64,000 nucleotides of DNA from a bacterium (GTDB lineage Bacteria; Electryoneota; Electryoneia; Electryoneales; Electryoneaceae), in contig CAXXKJ010000002.1 of NCBI GenBank assembly GCA_963675295.2, forward strand, positions 800,001 to 864,000, written 5' to 3'. Made by a program: the position numbers and the translations under genes. Shown here one piece after another: positions 540 to 56,747 of the stretch (the first letter of the stretch is position 1; each line of letters begins with the position of its first letter). Under the pieces are notes generated by a model. That model had not been told where the DNA came from, searched no databases, and worked only from the letters and a program-made list of their open reading frames with translations.

Positions 540-3500
540 TCAGAAATTACTGAGCGGGGTACGTCCTCGCCGCTGTTCCAACTGGACATCCTGCAGCATC
601 GGCGCCTTGATCCCGATGCGAAGGTAGAAGCCCTGGCCGATGCCTTGCGGGCTCCAGCGGAACGATCCTTCCCAGCTTTTCAGGTCACGGGTGACATTGA
701 GGCTGGAGGATACAACTTGCTTGCTGATCAGGTCGAGTTGCGTGCTGTAAGAGAACTGCCAGCGTTCGGTCAGGCGCAGGCTGAGGGTGCCGCCGACGGA
801 GAACGTCTCGTTCGGATCCATCGGATTTTCCATCGACAGGCGGTAGCGGATGTTGCCGGTGAAACGCCACGGTGTCCCGGAGCTGGCACCTTGGCCAAAT
901 CGTTCCCTGGTGCTGCCGAAGCGGTCGACTCGTTCGCGAATTTCCTCGGTGCTGAGCGGGTCGGAGGTGGTGTCGACGGGTGCTTCTTCCCGCACCGCGC
1001 GTTGGGCGAAGGGGCTTTTGCCGGCGATGGCGAACTGGGACGACGTCGAAAATGAGGTCATGCGGACGGGGTTGGTCCAGCTGAAATCGTCCGACTCCCA
1101 GTAGAACTTGTCCACCCGCCGGTTCGCCTCCAGATCGTACTGATAGAAGCTGTGCCGGGTCTGGATGTCGATGCTCAGCCGTTCCAGTGGGCCGAGCCGG
1201 TTCTTTCCGCTGATCGGGTTGGCGCGGAAGGACGCGGACAGGTCGCCGAATTTGAGGCTATCGGCGGCGAAATTGTAGCTGGTGGACAGGTTGTAGGTGA
1301 ACAGATCCGTCTTCGCCTCGATCTCCTCGCCTTCCTGGTCGAGCAGGATGCGCTTCATCTGGAACAGGTTGTTGAGGCTGAAGTTGAGCGCCAGTTGACG
1401 GCCGCGGGATGTCCCGCCGAGCAGGCTGCCGGTGTAGCGGTCCCGTTCATAGCTGAACGTGGAATCGACGTAGGTCGTGTCGCCATCGGCGTCCACCTCG
1501 GGTAGCGCGAGAGTGCGTTGCAGCTGCTGGTAGTAGCCGAATTCCGGGTCGGAAAAGTCCGGACGGAAGCTCATGCTGATGGTCGGCGTAACGACGTGAC
1601 GGATGGTGTTGACTGTCCAGCGGTTGATCGGGAAATAACCGTACAGCTTGGTCGTTGTGTTCAGGCTGGCGTTGAAAGTGCGGCGCTGGTAGAATCCGCG
1701 TTCCTGCGCCGATTGCGGGGTACCGTTACCGTCGATGTACCAGGCGCGGCGTTCCAGCAACCAGTCTTCGTTGTAGCTGATGCTGGGATTGAGGTTGAAA
1801 TACTTGGCGACTTTCTGCGGCGCGCTGAAACGCAGGTTGTGTTCGAAGCCGCTGCGCCAGGTTTCTTCGAGCTCGTCTTCGCTGTTCCGGTCCTCGTCCC
1901 GCTTGTTCTGGAACCGGTTGTTGTACGACATCGAGATGCTGTTGAACCACTTTTCCTCGTTGTCGTCACGTTGTGATAAGCGTTCTCCCGGCGCGAGACG
2001 CGGCTGCGGCGGTTCGTACAACAATCCCTTGTCGGACTTTTTCTTCTCCTGTTCGCTGGGGAAGAAGTAGATCCGGCCGTGATTGTAGCTGACGTTCGGC
2101 AGGGTCTGGTTGTTGCTCTGATCGGACAGATCCTGCGCGTGGTTGAGGTTCATGGTCAGCGAGTTGCCCTGTGTCGGCCAGTTCTTGCTGAAGGTGGCGT
2201 TGCTGCGGATCTGCTGGTTAACACGGGTCAGCGCGTCGTTTGAGTAGTTGTTGTAGTATGTGCTGCGGCTGACGAAGGTCGCATCTACGTTGAGGCGCGT
2301 GTTCTTGTCGAATTCCTGGCGGTGGATCATGCGCAGATCCCAGCCGTTCTGGCCGGTGTTGCTGTTGTCGATCGACCCGCTGAGGGTGCCGGAATACCGG
2401 TAGCGGTCCTTGTAGACCAGTGTCGACTCCAGCATGATGCCGGTTTTCTCGTAGAAGTCGAGCTTCGTCTCCAGATCCCAGTAGTCGGACGCCGCCCAGT
2501 AATACCCGAAGTCCTGCAGGTTGCGCCCCCGGTCGCCGCTCTGGCCGTAGGATGGGATCAGGATGCCGCTGCGCCGCCCGCGTTCAATCGAGAACACGCC
2601 GAACGGCACCGCGAACACCGGCACTTCGCCGAACCGCAAGACCACCGGCTTGCCGACGACCTTGTCGCCGACAATCATCTTCATTTCGTTGCCGGTGAAC
2701 TTGTAGTCGGGTGGGTTTTCGTAGCTGGTGGTGAAGTAGCCGTCTTTTACGTACAGCACGTCGTCGCTGACCTTCTGGATCTGGGTGCCGTGGTAGATGC
2801 CGATACCGTACTCGGTGCTGCCGTGCTCGATGTATCCCTGCCGGGTCTTCATGTTGACCTTGAGCAGCTCACCCTCAAGCTCCTCGCCGCCGTCGCTGAA
2901 GGTCGGCATGCCGACGTACATGACCGTGTCGATTTCGGTGTTGGTCGTGTCGGTGTAGACGGTATCGAGGGCGGGCGTGGCGGTCATCGTGTCACGGTTC
3001 CAGTCGACTTCGATGCGATGCGCGCGCAGGATCATGCCCTTGTAGTCGACGGTCGCGTTTCCGGTCAGGATGGTGCGGCGTTCCGGCACGACGAAAAAGA
3101 TGTCCTCGGCGGAATAGGCGATGCTGGTGTCGAGGTCGGACTCGGCACGGTCGGGCGTGGCCAGAGAATCGGCGGCCAGCGTATCCGGCATTTCGCTCTG
3201 CAGGCTGTCGGCGGCGGCGCTGTCGGGCATGGGTATGGCGAGCCTGGCCTGCTGCGCGAGCAGGGAATCCGGCAGCTGGCTCGGTGGGATGAAGCCACGC
3301 ATCACCGGCGGGCCGTCAAGCTGAATCAACGAGGAATCCGCCGCCGTACTGTCGCCGGGTGCGGTGAAGGGGGAGACGTCTACCCCGACTCCGGAACCTC
3401 CGCCCTGTGTTTCACCGGTTACGCCTTCTCGGCTCATCTCGGCACCGTCCGATCCGGGACCAGGCGAGAGCACGATGCCGCCGATGTAGCCGTCGGACGT

Positions 3501-10272: not shown

Positions 10273-10304
10273 AGTCGTGAGTCCTGAGTCTTGAGTCCTG
10301 AGTG
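10273..10304. repeat. 7-bp tandem array upstream of gcvT
   Basis: agtcgtg agtcctg agtcttg agtcctg agtg. Confidence 0.85.
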
Positions 10305-10348
10305 AAACACCAACCCAAGACAAGGAATCAAACGGTATCGTTAAAAAC

Positions 10349-10374
10349 AGTTATGAGTTGTGAGTTGTGAGTCG
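10349..10374. repeat. Second 7-bp tandem array upstream of gcvT
   Basis: agttatg agttgtg agttgtg agtcg. Confidence 0.8.
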
Positions 10375-10510: not shown

Positions 10511-11041
10511 TTAATCTAAATTATTTGACTCGTAGCTTCGAATTTCATTTTTTAGACTTTCAATTTTCTCCTTATCTGCCCGTAGTTTTTGTTTTTCTTT
10601 CTCTTTTTTTCTTAAAAGCTTTAACTGTTTTTGTAACTCTTTTACTCTTTTCTTAGTTTTAATTCTTTCTAAGTCACGCGGATCTTCTCCATATTTATTA
10701 ACTCCTTTTGTTCCTGGAAAAAAAGCTACATATATTACCAATAATACGCTAATAAAAGGAACAAAACATAAATATAAAAAGTATTTGGACTTATTTAGGT
10801 CATGAAGTCTTTTAGAAAATAAACTATGAACTAATAATAAAAACATTAGAGCAATAAGTATTCGAATAATCCAAAGATAATCTCCCTCCTGTCCTATAAG
10901 CTCTGGACGCCTTATAAGTATAAAGAATATTAGATTAAACAAAAAATTTAGCGGCCAAAAGTACACATTAAAAGGAAGTCTTGATATTCTACCTTCATCT
11001 TCAAATAGGTAATAAAAGAGTTTTGAAGAAACGCTTTTCAT
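10511..11041 (-). CDS. DUF805-family membrane protein with Lys/Glu coiled-coil tail; very AT-rich
   Basis: F..EGRISR, KRLHDLNKS, PGTKGVNKYGEDP are DUF805 hallmarks. Confidence 0.85.
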   Translation of the reverse strand: MKSVSSKLFYYLFEDEGRISRLPFNVYFWPLNFLFNLIFFILIRRPELIGQEGDYLWIIRILIALMFLLLVHSLFSKRLHDLNKSKYFLYLCFVPFISVLLVIYVAFFPGTKGVNKYGEDPRDLERIKTKKRVKELQKQLKLLRKKEKEKQKLRADKEKIESLKNEIRSYESNNLD

Positions 11042-33042: not shown

Positions 33043-33075
33043 AACTCACCACTCATCACTCATTACTCACAACTG
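33043..33075. repeat. 7-bp tandem array past the stop of 33084..35981
   Basis: aactcac cactcat cactcat tactcac aactg. Confidence 0.8.
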
Positions 33076-43900: not shown

Positions 43901-43931
43901 AGCTGTGAGCGATGAGCTCTGAGCTGTGAGT
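43901..43931. repeat. 7-bp tandem array after the menA stop
   Basis: agctgtg agcgatg agctctg agctgtg agt. Confidence 0.8.
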
Positions 43932-46878: not shown

Positions 46879-46879
46879 G

Positions 46880-46987
46880 GAAGTCGAAGGGAAGTCGGAC
46901 AGAAGTACAAAGTCGAAGAGAAGTCGAAAGTCGAACTGAAGTCGAAAGACTAAGGACGAGAGACTAGAGCCCAGAGACGAGAGACGG
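46880..46987. repeat. Two adjacent degenerate short-repeat arrays filling the tolR-tolA spacer
   Basis: AAGTCGA-type units at 46880-46946, then agactaa ggacgag agactag agcccag agacgag agacgg at 46947-46987. Confidence 0.75.
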
Positions 46988-46993
46988 TAGTAC

Positions 46994-47818
46994 ATGCGAA
47001 TTCTGAGCGCGACAACTGGTCAAGCCACACCCCGCAGCCACCTGGTATCCTTTGGTGGCCACGTGGTGCTGGTCGCGCTCGCGTTGATTCTGCCGACGCT
47101 CGGTCTGTTACCGGAACCGAAGACCGAGTTCGAGGTGGAGTTTGTCCGTCTCAAGGGTGGCGGTGAGATGCTGCCCGGCTGGGTGAAACCGACCCCGGCG
47201 CCGCCCGACGAATCGCTCGAACCGGACAACAAGCCGTTGGAGCAGCCAAAGCCGGTGGAAGAGAAGCCGAAACCCGCCGAGCCGGAACCGGCAGCGGTTG
47301 AGCAGGAAAAACCGGCCCCCGCGCCGTCGCAACCAGTAGAGGAAAAGCCGAAGCCGCGTGAGGAAACTCCGGCCGCGACGGGCAATGCGTCTCCAGCTGA
47401 AGAAACAACGGAAGAGTCGGTAGCAGACACCGAAACCGGGTCCACCGCTCCCGCGACCGAGGGAGAAACCGGCGCGGGTGTCGGGGCAAAGCCAGGACCG
47501 GAGGGGCCGGGCATGGGCGCGACCAGCGACCTCGAATTCACCGGTGCGAACGCGTATCTGTCTCGTATCGAAGCCGAGGTACAGCGCCGCTTCAACTTCC
47601 GCGGGAAAGCGTCCGGCAAGGTCGCCGAGTACCATTTCACGCTGGACAAGAAGGGCGAGCTGCATGATCTCGTGCTGATGGTCAGCAGTGGCGTGCCGAG
47701 TCTCGATCTCGCGGCACGCAGCGCGTTAACCCGCGCCAACTTTCCGCCGTTGCCGGGCAGTTTCCCCAGTGACCGCCTCGGCATCACCTACAAATTCCAC
47801 GGAGATGGTTCACGATGA
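46994..47818 (+). CDS. tolA: TolA/TonB-family energy transducer
   Basis: SFGGH TM motif, Pro/Glu-rich linker, YLSRI...SSG..SLDLAA..AL...FPPLP; lies between tolR and tolB. Confidence 0.8.
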   Translation: MRILSATTGQATPRSHLVSFGGHVVLVALALILPTLGLLPEPKTEFEVEFVRLKGGGEMLPGWVKPTPAPPDESLEPDNKPLEQPKPVEEKPKPAEPEPAAVEQEKPAPAPSQPVEEKPKPREETPAATGNASPAEETTEESVADTETGSTAPATEGETGAGVGAKPGPEGPGMGATSDLEFTGANAYLSRIEAEVQRRFNFRGKASGKVAEYHFTLDKKGELHDLVLMVSSGVPSLDLAARSALTRANFPPLPGSFPSDRLGITYKFHGDGSR

Positions 47819-49128
47819 AGCCATCGCGATTGCTTCCGCTGTTGCTGCTGCTGGTGTTTGCCGTTTCGAGTTTGTTGACTGGTCCCGTGTTCGCACAGAC
47901 CAGCGAGGATGAGGATGAAACGACCGAGGTCACACTCGAGGCGTTCGGGCAGGGTTACTACCGTCCGGGGTTGATTTACGGCATCCGGTTCGAGCCGGAA
48001 TTGAACGCCGAGCAGCAGATGGCGTCCAAGCTGTTCGATGAACGCCTGCGGTTCGCGTTGGACTGGTCGGGCTATGTCAATTTGCAGCTGACCGACTCGT
48101 TGACCTTCTCCGGCCCGCCGGAAACCGAACAGGCCGAACCGGAAAGCGAATTGCGAGTTGAAATTGCAGCGGATGAAAGCGATCCGGACCTGGTGTACGC
48201 CACGATCATGCTGGCGGAACCGGAGGGGGAGGCGTGGTACACCGGACGGATCGGGTTCAAGCGATCGTACGCCAATGAGTCCGGCGATGCCGCAGCCGAA
48301 ACGATCATCGTGCAGCTGACCGGGATGACGCCGCCGTTCCGTTCGCGGATCGTGTTTGTCGAGTCGAAGGGGAACAACGTCAAGGAACTGATGCTCGCGA
48401 AGTATGACGGGTCAACCAAGCAGCAGTTGACGAACGACGGCTCAATTGCGTTGTCGCCGAGCTGGTCGCCGGACGCGAAGAGTATCGTCTTCTGCAGTTT
48501 CCGAGACAAGGGCGACGCTGACCTTTTCATCGCCGATCTGGCGGGACGCCGGATCCGTCGCCTCGCCCCGCGTGAGGGCACCGACGCCGCGCCGGCATGG
48601 TCGCCGACGGGCCGGGAGATTGTGTTCGCGGGGTCGAACGGTGAGAACACAAACCTGTACATCGTCGACGCGGATGGCCGCAATCTGCGCAAGCTGACCA
48701 CCACCCGCGGGATCGACACCTCGCCGAGCTGGTCGCCGACCGGGCGGGAGATTGTGTTCATGTCCGACCGCAACGGCCACCCGCACATCTACCGCATGGA
48801 CAAGTACGGCTCGAATCTGCGTCGTCTCACCTATGAGGGCAGCTACAATTCCGACCCGGCGTGGTCACCGTCCGGCGACCGGATTGTCTACTGCCGCCGC
48901 ACCGACAACGGCTTCCAGCTGCACTCGATAGACCCGTTGGGCGATGTGGATGTCGCGTTGACCAATGAACCCGGCGATCACCTCGACCCGAGTTGGTCGG
49001 CGGACGGGATGAAGATTACGTACTCGTACCGTGGCCGCATCTGGGTGATGAGCGCCGATGGCACCAACCGGCGGCAGCTGGCGTCCGATGGTCTGCAGCC
49101 CGATTGGTCGCCGATTTTGGAACGATAG
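47815..49128 (+). CDS. tolB: TolB beta-propeller (PD40 repeats)
   Basis: Signal peptide; FRSRIVFV; repeated SPSWSP.G..IVF.S. Confidence 0.9.
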   Translation: MKPSRLLPLLLLLVFAVSSLLTGPVFAQTSEDEDETTEVTLEAFGQGYYRPGLIYGIRFEPELNAEQQMASKLFDERLRFALDWSGYVNLQLTDSLTFSGPPETEQAEPESELRVEIAADESDPDLVYATIMLAEPEGEAWYTGRIGFKRSYANESGDAAAETIIVQLTGMTPPFRSRIVFVESKGNNVKELMLAKYDGSTKQQLTNDGSIALSPSWSPDAKSIVFCSFRDKGDADLFIADLAGRRIRRLAPREGTDAAPAWSPTGREIVFAGSNGENTNLYIVDADGRNLRKLTTTRGIDTSPSWSPTGREIVFMSDRNGHPHIYRMDKYGSNLRRLTYEGSYNSDPAWSPSGDRIVYCRRTDNGFQLHSIDPLGDVDVALTNEPGDHLDPSWSADGMKITYSYRGRIWVMSADGTNRRQLASDGLQPDWSPILER

Positions 49129-49158
49129 TCTATGGTCTATGGTCCATGGTCAATGGTT
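49127..49158. repeat. 7-bp tandem array (GGTCTAT type), left flank of the four-helix-bundle gene
   Basis: agtctat ggtctat ggtccat ggtcaat ggtt; starts inside the tolB TAG. Confidence 0.85.
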
Positions 49159-49225
49159 ACACAAAACCACAAAACGGCCATAGCCATCTGAATCGGTATC
49201 TGAAGTATATGGGGGAGAATAACTA

Positions 49226-49588
49226 GTGCGTGATCATACAAACTTGACCGCATTTACGTTGGCTGAGGAGTTGGCTATTGCTGTGTATGTTCATACAAGA
49301 GATTTTCCTCGCGAAGAATTGTTTGGGTTAACATCACAAATGAGAAGGGCTGCAGTCTCGGTCGCCTCAAACATCGTTGAAGGTGCAGCCAGATCAAGTC
49401 ATGCGGATTTCCTGCGATTTCTTGACATTGCGTTCGGTTCGGTCCGTGAACTGGAATTTCAGATATCCCTTGCGGCAAAACTCGACTACCTGCAAGAACC
49501 TCGCAGCACCCAATTGTCGGCCTTGGCACAACGTACTTCGAAAGTGTTGCATGGTTTGATCCAGTCTTTGAAAACGAAAAGACCGTGA
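49226..49588 (+). CDS. Four-helix-bundle protein (TIGR02436 / 23S rRNA IVP-like family)
   Basis: FPREELFGLTSQMRRAAVSVASNIVEG..R....F..FL.IA.GS..EL..Q signature; GGGAG RBS, GTG start. Confidence 0.93.
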   Translation: MRDHTNLTAFTLAEELAIAVYVHTRDFPREELFGLTSQMRRAAVSVASNIVEGAARSSHADFLRFLDIAFGSVRELEFQISLAAKLDYLQEPRSTQLSALAQRTSKVLHGLIQSLKTKRP

Positions 49589-49598
49589 ACTCACACCC

Positions 49599-49703
49599 AG
49601 ACCACAGACCACAGACCACAGACCATAGACCATAGACCAAAGACCATAGACCACAGACCATAGACCATAGACCAAAGACCATAGACCACAGACCATCGAC
49701 CAG
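49599..49703. repeat. 15-unit 7-bp tandem array (AGACCAN), right flank of the four-helix-bundle gene
   Basis: 14 x AGACCA[c/t/a] plus cgaccag; reverse complement of the left-flank unit. Confidence 0.95.
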
Positions 49704-49817
49704 AGCCCCCATCCTCCGCTCCCGGAGGACAGAACAACTGTCCATGGATCTGGGCAACTGCTGGCGGGATGCGCTCCCTGATCGTACGTTAATCCGTGGA
49801 CTTGAACTGAAACGGGG

Positions 49818-51005
49818 GTGCCTTCCATGCGACACGCACAGCTTCGAGTAGCAGCAGCCAGTCAATCCGGCCTTCTTCCTTTTGGTTTCCTTTTAGTTCT
49901 TCTGGTGTGTACGGGACTTGCGATGACCGTGCCCGCCTTGGCGCAGCCGACGCAAACCTGGATCTACGCATTTGATGTCTACTATGTGTTTCAGGATATC
50001 TATGACCTTGCGATCACATCGGACGGCAACGTGGTTGCAGTCGGACGTTGGGATGATCGAGCGAGCGCAGTTAAGCTGGACAGCGATACGGGGCAGGTGC
50101 TGTGGGAATACCACACGAACGACAACGATTCGCAGTTGAACTGTGTAAGTTCGGTTGAAGACGGCAGCGGGGATATGCTGATCGGTGGTTGGAAGAATGA
50201 AGATGCTCTTCTAGCCCGGTTGTCAGCACAGGGTGAATTGATCTGGATGCGGCTCTTCAATCCGAGCCCAACGTTGAATCCCGATTGGATCAGTGATATG
50301 CTGATTCATCCGAGCGGTAATATCTATCTCTGCGGTCTTCTGTCCGGACAGAAGACTTATGCTTGGTTACGTGCTGATGATCCCAGCCAACACCAGGTGT
50401 ATCGCAACTTGCCCGTTGTGATACCCCGTGGGCGACGTCTGGAGGTGGCTTCACCATCCTCATTTCTCATTGGGGGTGACATCTGGAGTGGCACAACGTT
50501 ATATGGTGGAGTAGCACAGGTTTCAACATCCGGTGAGGTAGAGTGGATTCACCAGGCACCCGATGTGAACTACACATACGGAGTAGCTCGGACGCAGGAC
50601 GCTATCACTGTGTTTGTGGGTCCGATGAGTGACTTCGGCGAACCCGTACGTGCATTCATACGCGGCCTCGATGGACAGGGCAATCAGGTCTGGGGGCTGG
50701 AACATGGTGTAGGCGATGATAACAGCGTTTACCACGATGTTTGCCCGGCGAATCCAGGAGGTTCCAATGATGTCTATGTCGTAGGGAATCTGTATGAGCA
50801 GAACGGCGGCCCCAGCCGTCAGGTTTTGCGCCGGATTTCGTCATCCGGGGATATCATCTGGACAGTTTACGGCACGGACGGCATCAGCTACCACAACGAG
50901 TGGCGGGTGGTGAAAGCGCTGAATAATGATGGCGTGATTGTCGCGGGTAAACGATTCGTGGCCCACAACGAAGCCGACCTGGTCATCGAACGCTACGATC
51001 CGTGA
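49818..51005 (+). CDS. Secreted probable beta-propeller, paralog 1 of 3
   Basis: Signal peptide ending ALA-QPTQTW; G...W blade motifs; ends VIERYDP. Start 49818 or 49827. Confidence 0.78.
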   Translation: MPSMRHAQLRVAAASQSGLLPFGFLLVLLVCTGLAMTVPALAQPTQTWIYAFDVYYVFQDIYDLAITSDGNVVAVGRWDDRASAVKLDSDTGQVLWEYHTNDNDSQLNCVSSVEDGSGDMLIGGWKNEDALLARLSAQGELIWMRLFNPSPTLNPDWISDMLIHPSGNIYLCGLLSGQKTYAWLRADDPSQHQVYRNLPVVIPRGRRLEVASPSSFLIGGDIWSGTTLYGGVAQVSTSGEVEWIHQAPDVNYTYGVARTQDAITVFVGPMSDFGEPVRAFIRGLDGQGNQVWGLEHGVGDDNSVYHDVCPANPGGSNDVYVVGNLYEQNGGPSRQVLRRISSSGDIIWTVYGTDGISYHNEWRVVKALNNDGVIVAGKRFVAHNEADLVIERYDP

Positions 51006-51059
51006 TTAACGTAATCTAAGCAGTAGCTACGGGTTTGAAATGATAAGGGGAGATGTCCG

Positions 51060-52241
51060 ATGAAACGAATTTGGACCTACAGCAGAGTTGGTCCCGGCAC
51101 ACACTTCCAGCAGGTGTTGTTTGGCATGGTCGCGCTATTGTTTGTAACGGTGTCCGCGTGCGCCCAGCCGACGCAGACCTGGATTCATGAGTTTCCAACC
51201 CTGCCGTATCCATGGGAATCGGTGCATGAAATGGTGATCACCACGGATGGCCGTGTCGTGGTGGTTGGTGCATGGAACGACATGTGGGGAATTCTGTGTC
51301 TTGACCTTGCCACGGGCGATCCGCTGTGGGAGTTGTCAGGTGGTGATGATCTCACGAGAATGACCAGCGTTGTGACGACGGATGACGGAACGGGTGATAT
51401 CATTGCCGGAGGCCACCCGCAGTTTGACGCGTTTCGTTCCTATCTCACCCGGGTCAATGCGCAGGGGGAGATCGTCTGGTGGCGCGATTTGCAGCACTCA
51501 AGCCTTCCAAACCGCGTGTACACGATACAGGCTCTGATGAGAATGGGCCCTGACAAGGTGTTTGCGTGTGGGCAGATCAACAGCCGGCCAACAATCGGCT
51601 GGGTGAATATCGATAATCCTGGTGTCCACTGGGCACGTTCAATCAATTCAGGGGACGGCCCGTGGACGATGGCAATGGCTCAATATTCCGGTACATCGGT
51701 CCTGATGGGTGGTAAGATCGCTCAGGGCAACAGCTTCAACGGCATCGTACTGAATATGAGCCGCCAGGGCCAGCTACTCTGGGCATACCAGACGAATCAC
51801 ATGATTTCGGTACTTGGGATAGCAAGTACGATGGACGGAACGGTCATCGCGGCCGGGTACGAAAGCAGGTTGGGTGTTCAAGAATACCCCGCCCGCATGG
51901 AGGGATTGAACGCAAACGGTGAGTTTCTCTGGGCAATCGAGCAGGGTTTGGATAATCATAGCCTGTTCTATGATGTGTGCACGACCGATCCGTCTGGATC
52001 GAACGATGTGTACGTCGCGGGAAGTGTCAATGAGGAAGAGGATGGTCCGAACTACCAGCTGGTGCACAAGGTCAGTTCCACGGGCGAGATCATCTGGACA
52101 CTCTACGGTTCAGCCGGAAACAGTGATCAGAACGGTTGGACTGCCGTTGAAGCGCTGGACAATGGCGGACTGGTTGTCGCCGGAGTGCGTTCGCCCGATT
52201 ACCCGGACGAAACGGTCGTGATCGAGCGCTACGATCCGTGA
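51060..52241 (+). CDS. Secreted probable beta-propeller, paralog 2 of 3
   Basis: ACA-QPTQTW ... VIERYDP; GGGGAG RBS. Confidence 0.8.
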   Translation: MKRIWTYSRVGPGTHFQQVLFGMVALLFVTVSACAQPTQTWIHEFPTLPYPWESVHEMVITTDGRVVVVGAWNDMWGILCLDLATGDPLWELSGGDDLTRMTSVVTTDDGTGDIIAGGHPQFDAFRSYLTRVNAQGEIVWWRDLQHSSLPNRVYTIQALMRMGPDKVFACGQINSRPTIGWVNIDNPGVHWARSINSGDGPWTMAMAQYSGTSVLMGGKIAQGNSFNGIVLNMSRQGQLLWAYQTNHMISVLGIASTMDGTVIAAGYESRLGVQEYPARMEGLNANGEFLWAIEQGLDNHSLFYDVCTTDPSGSNDVYVAGSVNEEEDGPNYQLVHKVSSTGEIIWTLYGSAGNSDQNGWTAVEALDNGGLVVAGVRSPDYPDETVVIERYDP

Positions 52242-52339
52242 TCAGGATTTCCAACGGGCAGTGCATGGTTAGACACGATACGGGAATACGGTGCCGGCCG
52301 GAATTTCAGCAATCAGCGCCAGCTACGAGGATATGATTG

Positions 52340-53515
52340 ATGAAGCATGAATGGGATGTTCGTACGGGTGGCTCCGTCACACGGTATTGGCAGATGTGGC
52401 TAGGCCTGGCAGCGATATTGATTGCCGCGGTGCCAGTGTTCGCCCAGCCGACACAAACCTGGACTCACCAGATTTCGGTGCAAGGGATGGCGTATGACAC
52501 CGTTCATGACATGGTGGTGACGCCGGATGGCCGGGTGGTGGTTGTCGGAGCCTGGCACGACATGTGGCGGGTTCGTTGTCTTGATCTTGGCACGGGCGCT
52601 TTTTTGTGGGAGGTCTCCGGAGGTCAGGAGTACTGGATGTTGACCAGTGTGGTGTCTGCGGATGACGGTTCCGGTGATGTAATCGTCGGGGGATATGAAC
52701 GATTCAGCCCGTTCGAAATTTACATCGCCCGCATCGATGCGCAGGGCCATATCGTCTGGGAACGCACGCTTGAGAATCCGAACTACAACCGCGTGTTTAC
52801 CTTAAAGGATCTATTGCGGATAGGACCAGATCGTGTCTATGGCTGCGGCCAGTTCAACAGCCAAACCTCGATCGGGTGGGTCAATATCGACAATCCCAAT
52901 TCGCACCAGGTCTTTTCCTTTGATCGGGAGGAAGGGCCGTGGACGCAATCCCTGGCTAAGTATTCGGATAACTCAATGTTGCTGGGCGGCAATTTCTTTG
53001 AGGGGTATACATTTTTCGCGAATGTACTTCACGTGACGACCTCGGGGCAGATGCTCTGGGTGTATCGCTCCTATGACATGCGGTCGGCGGATTGTCTGGC
53101 TCGAACACTTGACGGCACAACGATGCTTGGGGGGTATCATCCGTATTCCGGTACCGGAGTGTACGCGGCCCGGGTTGAGGCTGTCGATTCGAATGGTGAA
53201 TACCTGTGGTCGATCGAACAGGGTGTAGACTATTTCAGTGTCTTTAACGACATCTGCATGACGGATCCTGCGGGCTCGGATTACGTTTATGTCGCGGGTC
53301 AGGTGGTTGAGGAGCTGGATGGTCCGAACCGTCAGCTGGTGCACAAGGTGAGCTCGACAGGTGAGATCATCTGGACCCTGTACGGTGCGGACGGAGGCAG
53401 CACCGATTGCGAGTACACGGCGGTGGACGCGTTGCCGGATGGTGGTCTGGTTGTCGCTGGAACTCTCTCGGGGTATTCGGTTGGTCAGGTCGTGATCGAA
53501 CGTTACGATCCATGA
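52340..53515 (+). CDS. Secreted probable beta-propeller, paralog 3 of 3
   Basis: VFA-QPTQTW ... VIERYDP; GAGG RBS; start 52337 or 52340. Confidence 0.8.
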   Translation: MKHEWDVRTGGSVTRYWQMWLGLAAILIAAVPVFAQPTQTWTHQISVQGMAYDTVHDMVVTPDGRVVVVGAWHDMWRVRCLDLGTGAFLWEVSGGQEYWMLTSVVSADDGSGDVIVGGYERFSPFEIYIARIDAQGHIVWERTLENPNYNRVFTLKDLLRIGPDRVYGCGQFNSQTSIGWVNIDNPNSHQVFSFDREEGPWTQSLAKYSDNSMLLGGNFFEGYTFFANVLHVTTSGQMLWVYRSYDMRSADCLARTLDGTTMLGGYHPYSGTGVYAARVEAVDSNGEYLWSIEQGVDYFSVFNDICMTDPAGSDYVYVAGQVVEELDGPNRQLVHKVSSTGEIIWTLYGADGGSTDCEYTAVDALPDGGLVVAGTLSGYSVGQVVIERYDP

Positions 53516-55036: not shown

Positions 55037-56650
55037 CAGACTGCTGACAAACCCCGTCATTTGATGGGGTTTGTTTTGTATTCACACGGCACATCCTACT
55101 GGTTGGATTTGTGGTATAGTTGGCAGGTTGTGTTTGGTTCTTCGCTCGATTTTTCTATCGAGACCGTTGAGCGTGGTGCGCTGGGATAGAAGACCGGCTA
55201 AATAGGTCCATAGTCTTGAGATAGAGGGGTGTTTCGCCATTGTCATGGCGATCTTCTTCATGTTCTGGCAGGCGGCGGACAGCAGGCATTGTTCACGTGC
55301 TCCGGCTATCGAGCGCAGCCGGGCATAGCGATGGCCATACAGTTGTTTGGCTTCGCCGAAGCTGCGTTCGACCGTCTCCCGTCGTCGCCGGTACGTGGCC
55401 CGTCCGCGTTCTGTCCGAGCGGTCGCGATCATCTTTTCACGGCTGGCCTGCCACACGTGCCGGGTGACCACCTTGCGGTGATTGGCGCTTTCGGTGCATT
55501 GCTGCAACAGGGGACAGAGGACACAGCACGACGGGTCGGAAACATATTCCTGGTAGCCTTCACGTGTCGTCGTGCGATACGGTAGTGTCTGGCCGCCGGG
55601 ACAGTGGTAGACATCCCCCAGCGAATCGTACACAAACAGTCGTTTTGCCAGCATTCCCTTCTTGCGTGTCGTACGTACCGAGCCGATCACGCCGTCGATC
55701 TTTCGATCCTCCAGCCCCTTGCAGATGGCGGCGGTATTGTAGCCGGCGTCGAGACCGACCCTTTCCACCGGGAAGTGGAATTTGCGAATCTGTGTGTCGA
55801 GACGCTCGAGGTAGGGGGTGCTGTCATGTACATTGCCGGGGGTGACATGCGTGTCGGTGATGATTCCGGCCTTGTTGTCTACGGTACGGTGGTCAAGGTA
55901 GAAAAAGCCCTGCGGCTTGCCGTCCCGCACCATGAAGCCGCTGTCCGGATCGGTGGTGCTGACCTTGATTTCCTTTGTCGCCGGCGGTGATGAATCGTCA
56001 TTGTCACGTTTCTTCAGTGGCTTTTTGCCATGCGCCAGGCGATCCGCATCCACCGCCTCTTCCAGATCGGACAGATACGACTTCGTCGCCACTGTCACCT
56101 GCCGCTTCTTGAACTTCTTCTTGTTCGCGCTGGCTTTCAGGTGCGTCGAATCGGTGAACAAGACCCGGCCATCGACCAGGCCACGACGGATCGCCAGCAG
56201 CACGATCTCGTCGAAGATCTCCTGGAAGATGGTGCTTTCACGGAAACGGCGGCGTCGATTCTGGCTGATCGTGGACGCGTCCGGCACCTTGTCACGCAGA
56301 TCCAGCCCGAGGAACCAGCGATAGGCAACATTGACCTGGATCTCACGCACCAGCTGACGCTCGGACCGAATTCCGTACAGGTAACCGATGAACAACATCT
56401 TGAACAGAAGGACAGGGTCAACAGCCGGACGGCCATTGTCGGCGCTGTAGAGATGCTTTACACGATCCCGGATAAACGAAAAATCAATTGCCGCATCAAT
56501 CTTCCGCAAAAGATGATCGTCCGGGACCAAATCGTCAATGTAAATAAGCTCCGCTGCGCTTTGATGAGCTTTGGAAGTAGGTAGCATCTACAAAGATACA
56601 AAACAAATCCCCACAGGTCGAGAGCCCGTGGGGACTTTGTCAGCAGTCTG
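55037..56650 (-). mobile_element. IS1182-family insertion sequence
   Basis: Perfect 15-bp terminal inverted repeats cagactgctgacaaa (55037-51) and tttgtcagcagtctg (56636-50); each end continues into a hairpin and TTTGTTTTGTA; one transposase ORF; 32-bp flanking duplication. Confidence 0.93.
55082..56587 (-). CDS. IS1182-family DDE transposase
   Basis: LVPDDHLLRKID, GRPAVDP..LFKML..GYLYGIRSERQL, DSTHLKA, STTDPDSG, LDAGY, YRRRRETVERSF...K..YG. Confidence 0.95.
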   Translation of the reverse strand: MLPTSKAHQSAAELIYIDDLVPDDHLLRKIDAAIDFSFIRDRVKHLYSADNGRPAVDPVLLFKMLFIGYLYGIRSERQLVREIQVNVAYRWFLGLDLRDKVPDASTISQNRRRRFRESTIFQEIFDEIVLLAIRRGLVDGRVLFTDSTHLKASANKKKFKKRQVTVATKSYLSDLEEAVDADRLAHGKKPLKKRDNDDSSPPATKEIKVSTTDPDSGFMVRDGKPQGFFYLDHRTVDNKAGIITDTHVTPGNVHDSTPYLERLDTQIRKFHFPVERVGLDAGYNTAAICKGLEDRKIDGVIGSVRTTRKKGMLAKRLFVYDSLGDVYHCPGGQTLPYRTTTREGYQEYVSDPSCCVLCPLLQQCTESANHRKVVTRHVWQASREKMIATARTERGRATYRRRRETVERSFGEAKQLYGHRYARLRSIAGAREQCLLSAACQNMKKIAMTMAKHPSISRLWTYLAGLLSQRTTLNGLDRKIERRTKHNLPTIPQIQPVGCAV

Positions 56651-56682: not shown

Positions 56683-56700
56683 GTTTTTGTCTTGATCTTT

Positions 56701-56747
56701 GTCTCAAGTCTCAAGTCTCAAGACTCAAGACACAGGACTCAGGACTG
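56701..56747. repeat. 7-bp tandem array past the stop of the S8 gene
   Basis: gtctcaa x3, gactcaa, gacacag, gactcag, gactg. Confidence 0.85.

Follow-up and report, generated by a model that had tools for sequence, protein, structure and literature searches.

Introduction

What kind of genetic unit results when a small protein-coding gene lies between two arrays of tandem heptamers that are complementary to one another? The question is raised by a 64,000-nt stretch of bacterial DNA (GCA_963675295.2, contig CAXXKJ010000002.1, positions 800,001 to 864,000; hereafter the window), in which a gene for a four-helix-bundle protein of the family PF05635/TIGR02436 stands directly behind a tolB-like gene, with one array before its start codon and the other after its stop codon. 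An earlier reading of these letters (the original prediction) had proposed that gene and arrays together might be mobile or resemble an intervening sequence. We found that the gene and its complementary arrays recur as one unit in many phyla, and positions 49123-49702 of the window are best read as one copy of a compact, horizontally spreading cassette, a non-ribosomal form of those 23S rRNA intervening sequences (IVSs) that bear an open reading frame (ORF).

Two old puzzles meet at this locus. One is the conserved ORF of rRNA IVSs, reportedly described in 1993, which has solved structures and no assigned function; the other is the unexplained excess of intergenic heptamer repeats in bacteria.

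Results

Complementary heptamer arrays enclose the gene

The window locus comprises the following features, of which the cassette itself takes up 49123-49702, about 580 nt.

47815..49128, + strand, tolB-like beta-propeller gene (PD40 repeats, profile matches, named relatives)
49123..49159, + strand, left (upstream) heptamer array, rich in G/T on its coding strand (Tandem Repeats Finder, periodicity, inverted-repeat arm)
49160..49225, + strand, leader of 66 nt between the left array and the start codon (sequence reading, Tandem Repeats Finder)
49226..49588, + strand, PF05635/TIGR02436 gene of 120 aa with GTG start and TGA stop at 49586-49588 (profile matches, alignment, model)
49599..49702, + strand, right (downstream) heptamer array, 14.9 units of AGACCA(C/T/A) (Tandem Repeats Finder, periodicity, inverted repeats)
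49713..49728, + strand, G+C-rich hairpin CCTCCG / CGGAGG with a 4-nt loop and no T-run (sequence reading; not called as a terminator)

Tandem Repeats Finder placed the left array at 49128-49157 (period 7, 4.3 copies, 91% matches, unit GTCTATG), and the run of heptamer periodicity extended over 49123-49159, with the successive units GGTCTAT, GGTCTAT, GGTCCAT and GGTCAAT. The array opens with the last base, G, of the TAG that ends the tolB-like gene (49126-49128). Immediately 3' of the array, the leader holds an exact 8-nt direct repeat, CACAAAAC, in two copies (49160-49175), and a Shine-Dalgarno-like GGGGGAG (49211-49217) lies 8 nt 5' of the GTG at 49226. On the other side, a 10-nt spacer separates the TGA of the gene from the right array (period 7, 14.9 copies, 89% matches, unit AGACCAT). 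A GGTCTAT-type array starting in the tolB stop and an AGACCAN array of about 15 units starting 10 bp past the gene had both been predicted from the letters, as had a lower G+C content of the gene, and all three were borne out, the four-helix gene having 47.4% G+C, the tolB-like gene 61.6% and the window as a whole 57.3%. Whether the hairpin just outside the right array is part of the cassette is uncertain.

The units of the left and right arrays of this copy are reverse complements. An inverted-repeat search of the window returned 30-nt arms that are 87-90% complementary in four registers, together with a longer arm pair of 35 nt (86%); because the arms pair in four different registers, the sliding of register that had been envisaged is real. 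The RNA duplex of array against array was computed at -48.4 kcal/mol, and a 611-nt RNA folded with the arrays as its outer stem (minimum free energy -174.8 kcal/mol, z = -2.87), none of 20 shuffles being as stable. A 14-nt pattern of two units, allowing at most 2 mismatches, matched 17 times in the 64-kb window, always inside the two arrays (0.29 expected by shuffling, 0 of 100 shuffles reaching 17), and the unit of this cassette did not occur elsewhere within the 64 kb. Scans of 48900-49950 found no sigma-70-like promoter and two terminator-like sites, a number within expectation, neither of them at the end of the cassette. No target duplication was visible at the window copy.

Period-7 arrays accompany the family in many phyla

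We then assessed whether this arrangement is a property of the family. A profile built from the family alignment gave 579 confirmed matches against genomes; the best 80 were kept and amount to 79 loci, in which tblastn located 86 copies of the gene; 84 were intact in length, and of these 73 had flanks of 200 nt or more on either side (single loci and plasmid records are cited by L number; a 312-codon frame in L024 was left out of the counts). The loci belong mostly to Planctomycetota, and also to Verrucomicrobiota, Hydrogenedentota, Lentisphaerota, Nitrospira, Desulfobacterota, Myxococcota, Chloroflexota, Acidobacteriota, Actinomycetota and Bacteroidota.

A period-7 array lay within 200 nt of 59 of the 73 copies at a lax threshold (both sides 32, upstream only 13, downstream only 14, none 14). 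At the strict threshold the corresponding numbers were 18, 10, 14 and 31, against a background expectation per 200-nt flank of 0.014 (strict) or 0.034 (lax) arrays. Most copies without a scored array still had inverted repeats, degenerate and heptamer-like, directly at their start and stop codons. Near the family genes period 7 alone is enriched: 87 such arrays lay within 350 nt of genes (1.47/kb) versus 23 farther off (0.070/kb), and each of the other periods (5, 6 and 8-12) contributed 0-2 arrays near genes. Within 150 nt of genes the density reached 2.84/kb, compared to 0.24/kb in far non-ORF DNA of the same loci, a difference of about 12-fold. Median gaps from array to start codon and from stop codon to array were 46 and 13 nt (strict) or 20 and 9 nt (lax). 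Fused forms that appeared in L054 and L004 were rejected as alignment artefacts running past the stop codon.

Plasmids carry the family as well, with homologues in 26 records (tblastn), almost all cyanobacterial, at 33-43% identity. Among the 12 examined, 7 had clear inverted arrays, with scores of 14.5-31.5 compared to about 7-8 for shuffles (for example, GTAGGGA/TCCCTAC in Nostoc and GGGTGTA/CTACACC in Calothrix); L084 and L085 had weak inverted arrays, and L081 had no array.

The arms of each copy match one another and share a polarity

The original prediction had called for comparing left and right arrays across the family for complementarity and co-variation in unit sequence, and the outcome was positive. 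Among the 18 pairs called at the strict threshold, upstream units, once reverse-complemented, agreed with their downstream partners at 6.56 of 7 positions, compared to 4.75 +/- 0.22 of 7 when partners were swapped between loci (0 of 2000 permutations reached 6.56) and 3.78 of 7 when units were compared directly. Eleven perfect pairs carried 9 different units (first-pass list, before stop-codon correction), indicating that complementarity is kept while the sequence changes. Unit pairs include GGTAGGC/GCCTACC, GCTTCGG/AGCCCGA, CTCGTCT/GAGAGAC and, in the window, CTATGGT/CCATAGA.

The arrays are also polar. G exceeds C in 31 of 36 upstream arrays and C exceeds G in 37 of 40 downstream arrays; the G-rich strand faces inward from both sides, and the G-rich version of the unit faces the gene start. 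This inward strand closes at least two reading frames in 25 of the 36 arrays (37% in a unit-shuffled null), and Shine-Dalgarno-like words (GGAG, GAGG or AGGA) occur in 20 of the 36 upstream arrays (17% in the null).

Similarity between copies ends at the arrays

All-versus-all blastn identified pairs of copies that are alike over gene and arrays only, with at least 900 nt of unrelated sequence on each side. L052 and L057 share 92% identity over 427 nt (-41 to +29), L039 and L075 88% (-41 to +27), the two copies in L060 87% (-133 to +30), and L025 and L073 97% over 587 nt; the shared length between copies ranged from 425 to 587 nt.

The unit turns up in unrelated surroundings. In 17 of the 79 loci the four-helix gene lies inside a dense array of tRNA genes, on the strand opposite to the tRNAs in 15 of the 17. 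These arrays (L006, L016, L019, L022, L025, L027, L035, L036, L038, L041, L045, L056, L060, L070, L071, L072 and L073) hold up to 25 tRNA genes in 6.3 kb, and several hold two or three copies of the cassette gene; solo heptamer arrays were also seen in tRNA spacers. In all 11 annotated plasmid cases the two neighbouring genes share one orientation, with the family gene in sense in 8 cases and antisense in 3, and these neighbours include cas6|cas4, cas10|cmr3 and two ribonucleotide reductase genes; the family genes of L082, L086 and L088 are inside CRISPR-cas operons (cas6|cas4 twice, cas10|cmr3). The pattern of co-oriented neighbours was not reproduced in the 79 loci with crude ORF calls: the orientations of neighbouring longest ORFs (n=59) were ++ 20, +- 16, -+ 15, -- 7 and ?? 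1, and calls based on G+C at third codon positions gave ++ 9, -+ 7 and +- 7, the rest being undecided. No rRNA was found in the 10 of the 79 loci that were searched, no Rfam family matched in the window, and no family match was found in 50,697 phage records.

Longer likenesses were observed in two cases. L017 and L020, from records titled Trueperaceae and Anaerosomatales, are 92% identical over 1504 nt including the cassette, which could reflect recent transfer or a binning error. In five Planctomycetota loci (L008, L010, L034, L053 and L054) similarity begins at the start codon of the cassette gene and continues downstream for over 1 kb, reaching into a large conserved gene, and the upstream side differs in L010.

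The protein is conserved, basic and similar to Avd in fold

The window protein matched PF05635 at 108.9 bits (cut-off 33.8) and TIGR02436 at 110.9 bits (cut-off 24), and its only Pfam matches were PF05635 and bAvd. Its GTG start aligns with M1 of homologues, in which M1, R2, D3 and H4 are invariant. A structure model computed from a 30-sequence alignment (predicted local distance difference test score, pLDDT, 95.4) has helices at 8-23, 29-54, 59-85 and 93-117. Its closest structure is 2GSC (XCC0516 of Xanthomonas campestris; template-modelling score, TM, 0.93; 42% identity), followed by 2RLD (BT_0352; TM 0.81), both deposited with 5 chains, and it also resembles Avd from a bacteriophage (4DWL, TM 0.76) and the Avd chains of a ribonucleoprotein of a diversity-generating retroelement (DGR; 8UB7, TM 0.79) at 10-12% identity. 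No known catalytic fold was recognised, 2GSC, 2RLD and Avd being the closest structures. The protein is basic, with an isoelectric point of 9.3.

A word-indexed protein search returned 4149 relatives at E <= 0.001 (best 72% identity), and the family is 55-72% identical across phyla; tblastn found one family copy in the window. The protein is under strong purifying selection, with ratios of non-synonymous to synonymous substitution (dN/dS) of 0.02-0.17 in 10 of 10 close pairs.

Heptamer arrays also occur without the gene

Across the window and the loci, 23 arrays lay away from family genes. Six of these, a number that Tandem Repeats Finder lists as well, are in the window, at 10273-10303, 10349-10372, 33044-33069, 43901-43930, 46955-46986 and 56703-56746, with the units AGTCCTG, AGTTGTG, ACTCATC, AGCTGTG, GACGAGA and CTCAAGA and no adjoining four-helix gene; judging from the listed ORFs, all six fall within spacers whose two flanking genes run in the same direction. 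Two of the units, those at 10273 and 56726, are mutual reverse complements 46 kb apart. Between the tolR gene and the gene for a TonB_C-domain protein (46879-46993), irregularly spaced GAAGTCG words precede five heptamers (GACGAGA, GACTAGA, GCCCAGA, GACGAGA and GACGGTA) that end 4 nt before an ATG at 46994. The arrays at 10273-10372 adjoin a DUF805 gene (10511-11041, - strand) that is visibly A+T-rich in a window of 57% G+C and is possibly foreign DNA. An array at 56699-56746 lies between a DDE transposase gene (DUF772 and DDE_Tnp_1_6; 55082-56587, - strand), which is the transposase nearest to the cassette, and the stop codon of an S8 peptidase gene. In L017, a CTGGAGG-type array (467-494) is followed after 25 nt by a CCTCCAG-type array (520-540); this gene-less inverted pair looks like an empty or miniature cassette.

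Two papers (PMC4692102, PMC4679880), in their accessible portions, record that bacteria have heptamer repeats in excess. The first describes 70 convergent array pairs in X. campestris, and pairs listed in its supplement 2 are 21-135 nt apart, many within one operon (for example, groES|groEL and atpA|atpG). As far as that source extends, these pairs look like gene-less versions of the cassette. The same supplement places a 4-unit GGGAATC-type array across the start codon of XCC0516, the 2GSC protein that is the best structural match of the window protein, and a 129-nt GGGGATT array 55 nt before alr0549 of Nostoc PCC 7120, which is tabled elsewhere as a 'four helix bundle protein' (PMC8491059). 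Neither paper (PMC4692102, PMC4679880), in its available text, contains the term '23S', 'four helix' or 'intervening' (0 occurrences in both) or mentions the protein family; thus the published tables, in the parts at hand, place arrays at XCC0516 and alr0549 without noting the family link. A preprint (10.1101/2022.06.06.494920), in its accessible part, states that heptamer repeats near start codons affect expression in Nostoc and that their binding partner is 'yet to be identified'. In searches of open-licence papers in PubMed Central and of bioRxiv, we found no report linking the family to flanking heptamers except one on the Coxiella IVS.

Neighbouring genes in the window

The tolB-like gene is the last of a row comprising tolQ, tolR, a gene for the TonB_C-domain protein and the tolB-like gene itself, with no pal gene following it. 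Its product has PD40 repeats and matches TIGR02800 at 275.2 bits, under the cut-off of 343; its relatives carry the name TolB in their sources, and it is 70% identical to a Calditrichaeota protein. The C-terminus ends where those of relatives do, which indicates that the cassette did not truncate the gene. The cassette is placed between this gene and a beta-propeller-like gene. Directly downstream, 49818-53515 holds three tandem paralogous genes (395, 393 and 392 aa) whose products have signal-peptide-like N-termini, a common C-terminal VIERYDP and weak beta-propeller matches, and a profile search found type IX secretion system sorting domains among the window proteins. Together with the Calditrichaeota match of the tolB-like product, these domains make a host within Calditrichota probable. 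Among 27 window ORFs scanned, which are part of the window's ORFs, there was no reverse transcriptase and no transposase beside the four-helix gene, the nearest transposase gene being 5.5 kb away.

Discussion

A proposed pairing cassette and the observations that strain it

We put at about even the chances that the unit is selfish and small, with arrays under selection for pairing, a stem that isolates it within host transcripts (by analogy with the rRNA form cut by RNase III) and a protein that acts on nucleic acid. Base pairing between the arms, and not any fixed sequence, would then be what selection keeps. A transcript running through the cassette on either strand would form a long, slippage-tolerant stem from the two arms; since some copies run with host transcription and others against it, a need for pairing in the transcripts of both strands is plausible. 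A double-strand RNase could cut this stem, as RNase III does in the homologous rRNA element, and cutting would set the cassette RNA apart from the host RNA, making an insertion between the genes of a transcription unit tolerable. The inward G-rich arrays, which often have stop codons in several frames and Shine-Dalgarno-like words, may serve to end host translation and allow translation of the ORF from host transcripts. The target of the basic, Avd-like protein would be nucleic acid, with the arrays or the stem as the most plausible candidates, and its action there would maintain or spread the cassette.

A number of observations weigh against this account. Were the stem under selection as RNA of the sense strand only, G.U pairs should be preferred among its mismatches, and this candidate was rejected: G.T (46) and A.C (48) mismatches are balanced in 56 stems (p = 0.92), with no strand signal. 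Given that there is no G.U bias, pairing of the sense-strand RNA alone is not what is conserved, and the balance fits a DNA-level constraint or one acting on both strands equally well. Not every copy has the expected arms. Arrays are missing from 14 of the 73 copies even when the threshold is lax; the Pseudanabaena plasmid L082 has long arrays in direct orientation (AAAGCTA x14 upstream, AAAGCCA x10 downstream), which the printed flanks of L023 resemble; and plasmid L087 has a period-8 array without a complement, its direct score being above the inverted one. Many loci are mutual orthologues (one such group adjoins tRNA-Cys); the copies therefore do not count as independent, and the number of distinct units is the safer measure. 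The left array of the window itself stands 66 nt from the start codon, contains no Shine-Dalgarno-like word and has a stop codon in its first unit only. A family-wide scan for 8-bp duplications gave the same result as controls shifted by 9, 15 and 21 nt, with L039 (8/8) and L073 (7/8) the only hits. A stem that encloses the ribosome-binding site would hinder translation, and the authors of the Coxiella study, in the part of it available, considered the ORF probably not expressed (PMC4990558).

The original prediction of an IVS-like or mobile unit acting in mRNA operons is upheld in part, its core having passed a test that could have failed: what we found is a recurrent, discrete unit whose homology ends at the arrays and whose design is that of the ORF-bearing 23S rRNA IVS, and the sense-strand RNA-only signal did not appear (G.T 46, A.C 48).

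Possible movement as DNA

The main rival, which we regard as unlikely though well short of negligible, is an element that works at the level of DNA. Here the arrays would be terminal inverted repeats made of tandem protein-binding sites, the unit would move as DNA, the binder would be either the encoded four-helix protein or a transposase supplied in trans, and gene-less pairs would be miniature derivatives like those of REPIN/RAYT systems or MITEs (miniature transposable elements with inverted repeats). Two copies speak for it. In L039 (about 2950-3402) and L074 (about 2953-3365), the arrays lie inside an outer inverted repeat of 14 bp, GTAACTACTCAGGT, which is perfect and is bordered on both sides by an 8-bp direct duplication (TATTTTAA in L039; GTTACTTG in L074, the latter outside the limits of the family-wide scan and read by eye), a signature of insertion as DNA. 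L074 lacks the downstream array, and its outer repeat begins in the stop codon. The absence of G.U bias is likewise expected if the sequence of duplex DNA matters, and the gene-less pair in L017, the 70 convergent pairs of X. campestris (PMC4692102, in its accessible part) and a family 55-72% identical across phyla agree with such an element. Against it, at least 9 units occur among the perfect pairs while the protein stays 55-70% identical, so that sequence-specific recognition would need repeated changes of specificity, whereas base pairing would need none. Moreover, the 27 ORFs scanned include no transposase or reverse transcriptase beside the gene (nearest transposase at 5.5 kb), the protein is without a known catalytic fold, and target duplications are no general feature of the copies, the window copy showing none.

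A bolder reading, which we advance as doubtful, is that the heptamer repeats of bacteria have their missing partner in the PF05635/TIGR02436 proteins, the gene with its inverted arrays being the autonomous form. Equally tentatively, solo arrays and gene-less pairs (GGGAATC in Xanthomonas, the cyanobacterial type of short tandemly repeated repetitive (STRR) sequences, and those in the window) might be its derivatives or targets. It is also conceivable, if speculative, that a non-enzymatic, Avd-like pentamer maintains or spreads the arrays in a manner analogous to REPIN/RAYT systems with a new kind of protein. If true, this would explain both the bacterial heptamer excess and the purpose of the IVS ORF.

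A possible regulatory device, or coincidence

Improbable, in our estimate, is a cis-regulatory device of a domesticated host gene, in which pairing of the 5' and 3' arrays sets the stability or translation of the gene's own mRNA and mobility plays no part. The arrays do abut start and stop codons, at the short median gaps given above, 20 of the 36 upstream arrays carry Shine-Dalgarno-like words, the protein is under strong purifying selection, and start-codon heptamers affect expression in Nostoc according to the accessible part of 10.1101/2022.06.06.494920; yet the similarity between copies ends at the arrays while their surroundings differ, the G+C content of the gene is 14 points under that of its neighbour, the contexts are unrelated (tRNA gene arrays, CRISPR-cas operons, ribonucleotide reductase genes and the tol operon), and two copies have target duplications. 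Coincidence, with the heptamers as generic slippage-prone or G-quadruplex-forming intergenic DNA in which the gene tends to lie, is disfavoured and very improbable: it can point to the 23 solo arrays (6 in the window), to the recorded heptamer excess (PMC4692102 and PMC4679880, as far as available) and to the direct-orientation arrays of L082 with the similar flanks of L023, but it faces the 12-fold density over other non-ORF DNA of the same loci, partner-specific complementarity (0 of 2000 permutations), fixed polarity (31/36 and 37/40), a window unit present at the cassette only, and units that are poor quadruplex formers because most hold GG runs only.

Returning to the pairing cassette as the preferred reading, the unit may define a very small class of mobile element without a recognisable recombinase. 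For annotation, heptamer arrays beside family genes should be treated as parts of an element and not as generic simple repeats.

Comparison with known systems

The published heptamer repeats, namely STRR and GGGGA(C/T)T in cyanobacteria, GGGAATC in Xanthomonas and TAACTGA in Beggiatoaceae, are tandem 7-nt intergenic units, and the window arrays are likewise tandem 7-nt units in intergenic DNA. In the parts of the literature at hand, the published repeats are often next to start codons and often form convergent pairs. They differ in that their arrays far outnumber family genes, whereas the window unit is undispersed in 64 kb.

RAYTs are HUH/Y1 transposases, and REPs are single palindromes. The likeness to REP/REPIN sequences and their RAYTs is one of architecture and possible action in trans: a gene is flanked by inverted copies of a short repeat, and gene-less copies occur between the genes of operons. 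The window protein is instead a four-helix bundle without a known catalytic site, its repeats are tandem heptamers, and the other heptamer arrays of the window carry units other than that of the cassette.

MITEs and mobile insertion cassettes are short units with inverted ends that lack a transposase of their own and are inserted between genes. The cassette shares the short length, the inverted ends, the absence of its own transposase and the intergenic position, and two copies have an 8-bp duplication; it differs in having a conserved gene under purifying selection, in ends that are tandem arrays of variable length, and in that duplications are not general.

Avd of DGRs has the same fold (4DWL, TM 0.76; 8UB7, TM 0.79). 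In the accessible part of a preprint (10.1101/2023.10.23.563531), Avd is a basic pentameric barrel that binds stem-loop RNA, and a duplex forms between sequences either side of the DGR template. The window protein is distant from Avd by profile (NF033474, 27.8 bits against a cut-off of 80; PF22296, 24.4 against 40) and by sequence (10-12% identity), and unlike in a DGR, no reverse transcriptase and no template/variable repeat pair was seen near the gene among the 27 ORFs scanned.

The closest relative is the 23S rRNA IVS of the Leptospira and Coxiella type. It has the same protein family (PF05635 is named after IVS elements), the same order of inverted terminal repeat, ORF and inverted terminal repeat, and a similar size, at 428-444 nt in Coxiella compared to 425-587 nt shared between copies here and about 580 nt in the window; as in IVSs, the PF05635 ORF of the window lies within terminal inverted repeats that can form a stem (30 nt, 90% complementarity). 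According to the available part of PMC4990558, the 428-nt Coxiella IVS has a 28-bp terminal stem and, directly before its S23p ORF, tandem GACAGAT heptamers, whose number (two or three) varies by strain; the stem is cut by RNase III, the 5' cut falling at the first heptamer. In that part the authors judged the ORF dispensable, and the heptamers are treated as a local feature of one species and not of the protein family. The window copy differs in lying outside an rRNA gene, after a tolB-like gene (IVS sites are helix 9, 25 or 45), and in arms that are pure tandem arrays of up to 15 units; excision by RNase III is known for the Coxiella element only. Taken together, gene and complementary arrays form one unit that is found in many phyla and in rRNA, tRNA gene arrays and mRNA operons alike.

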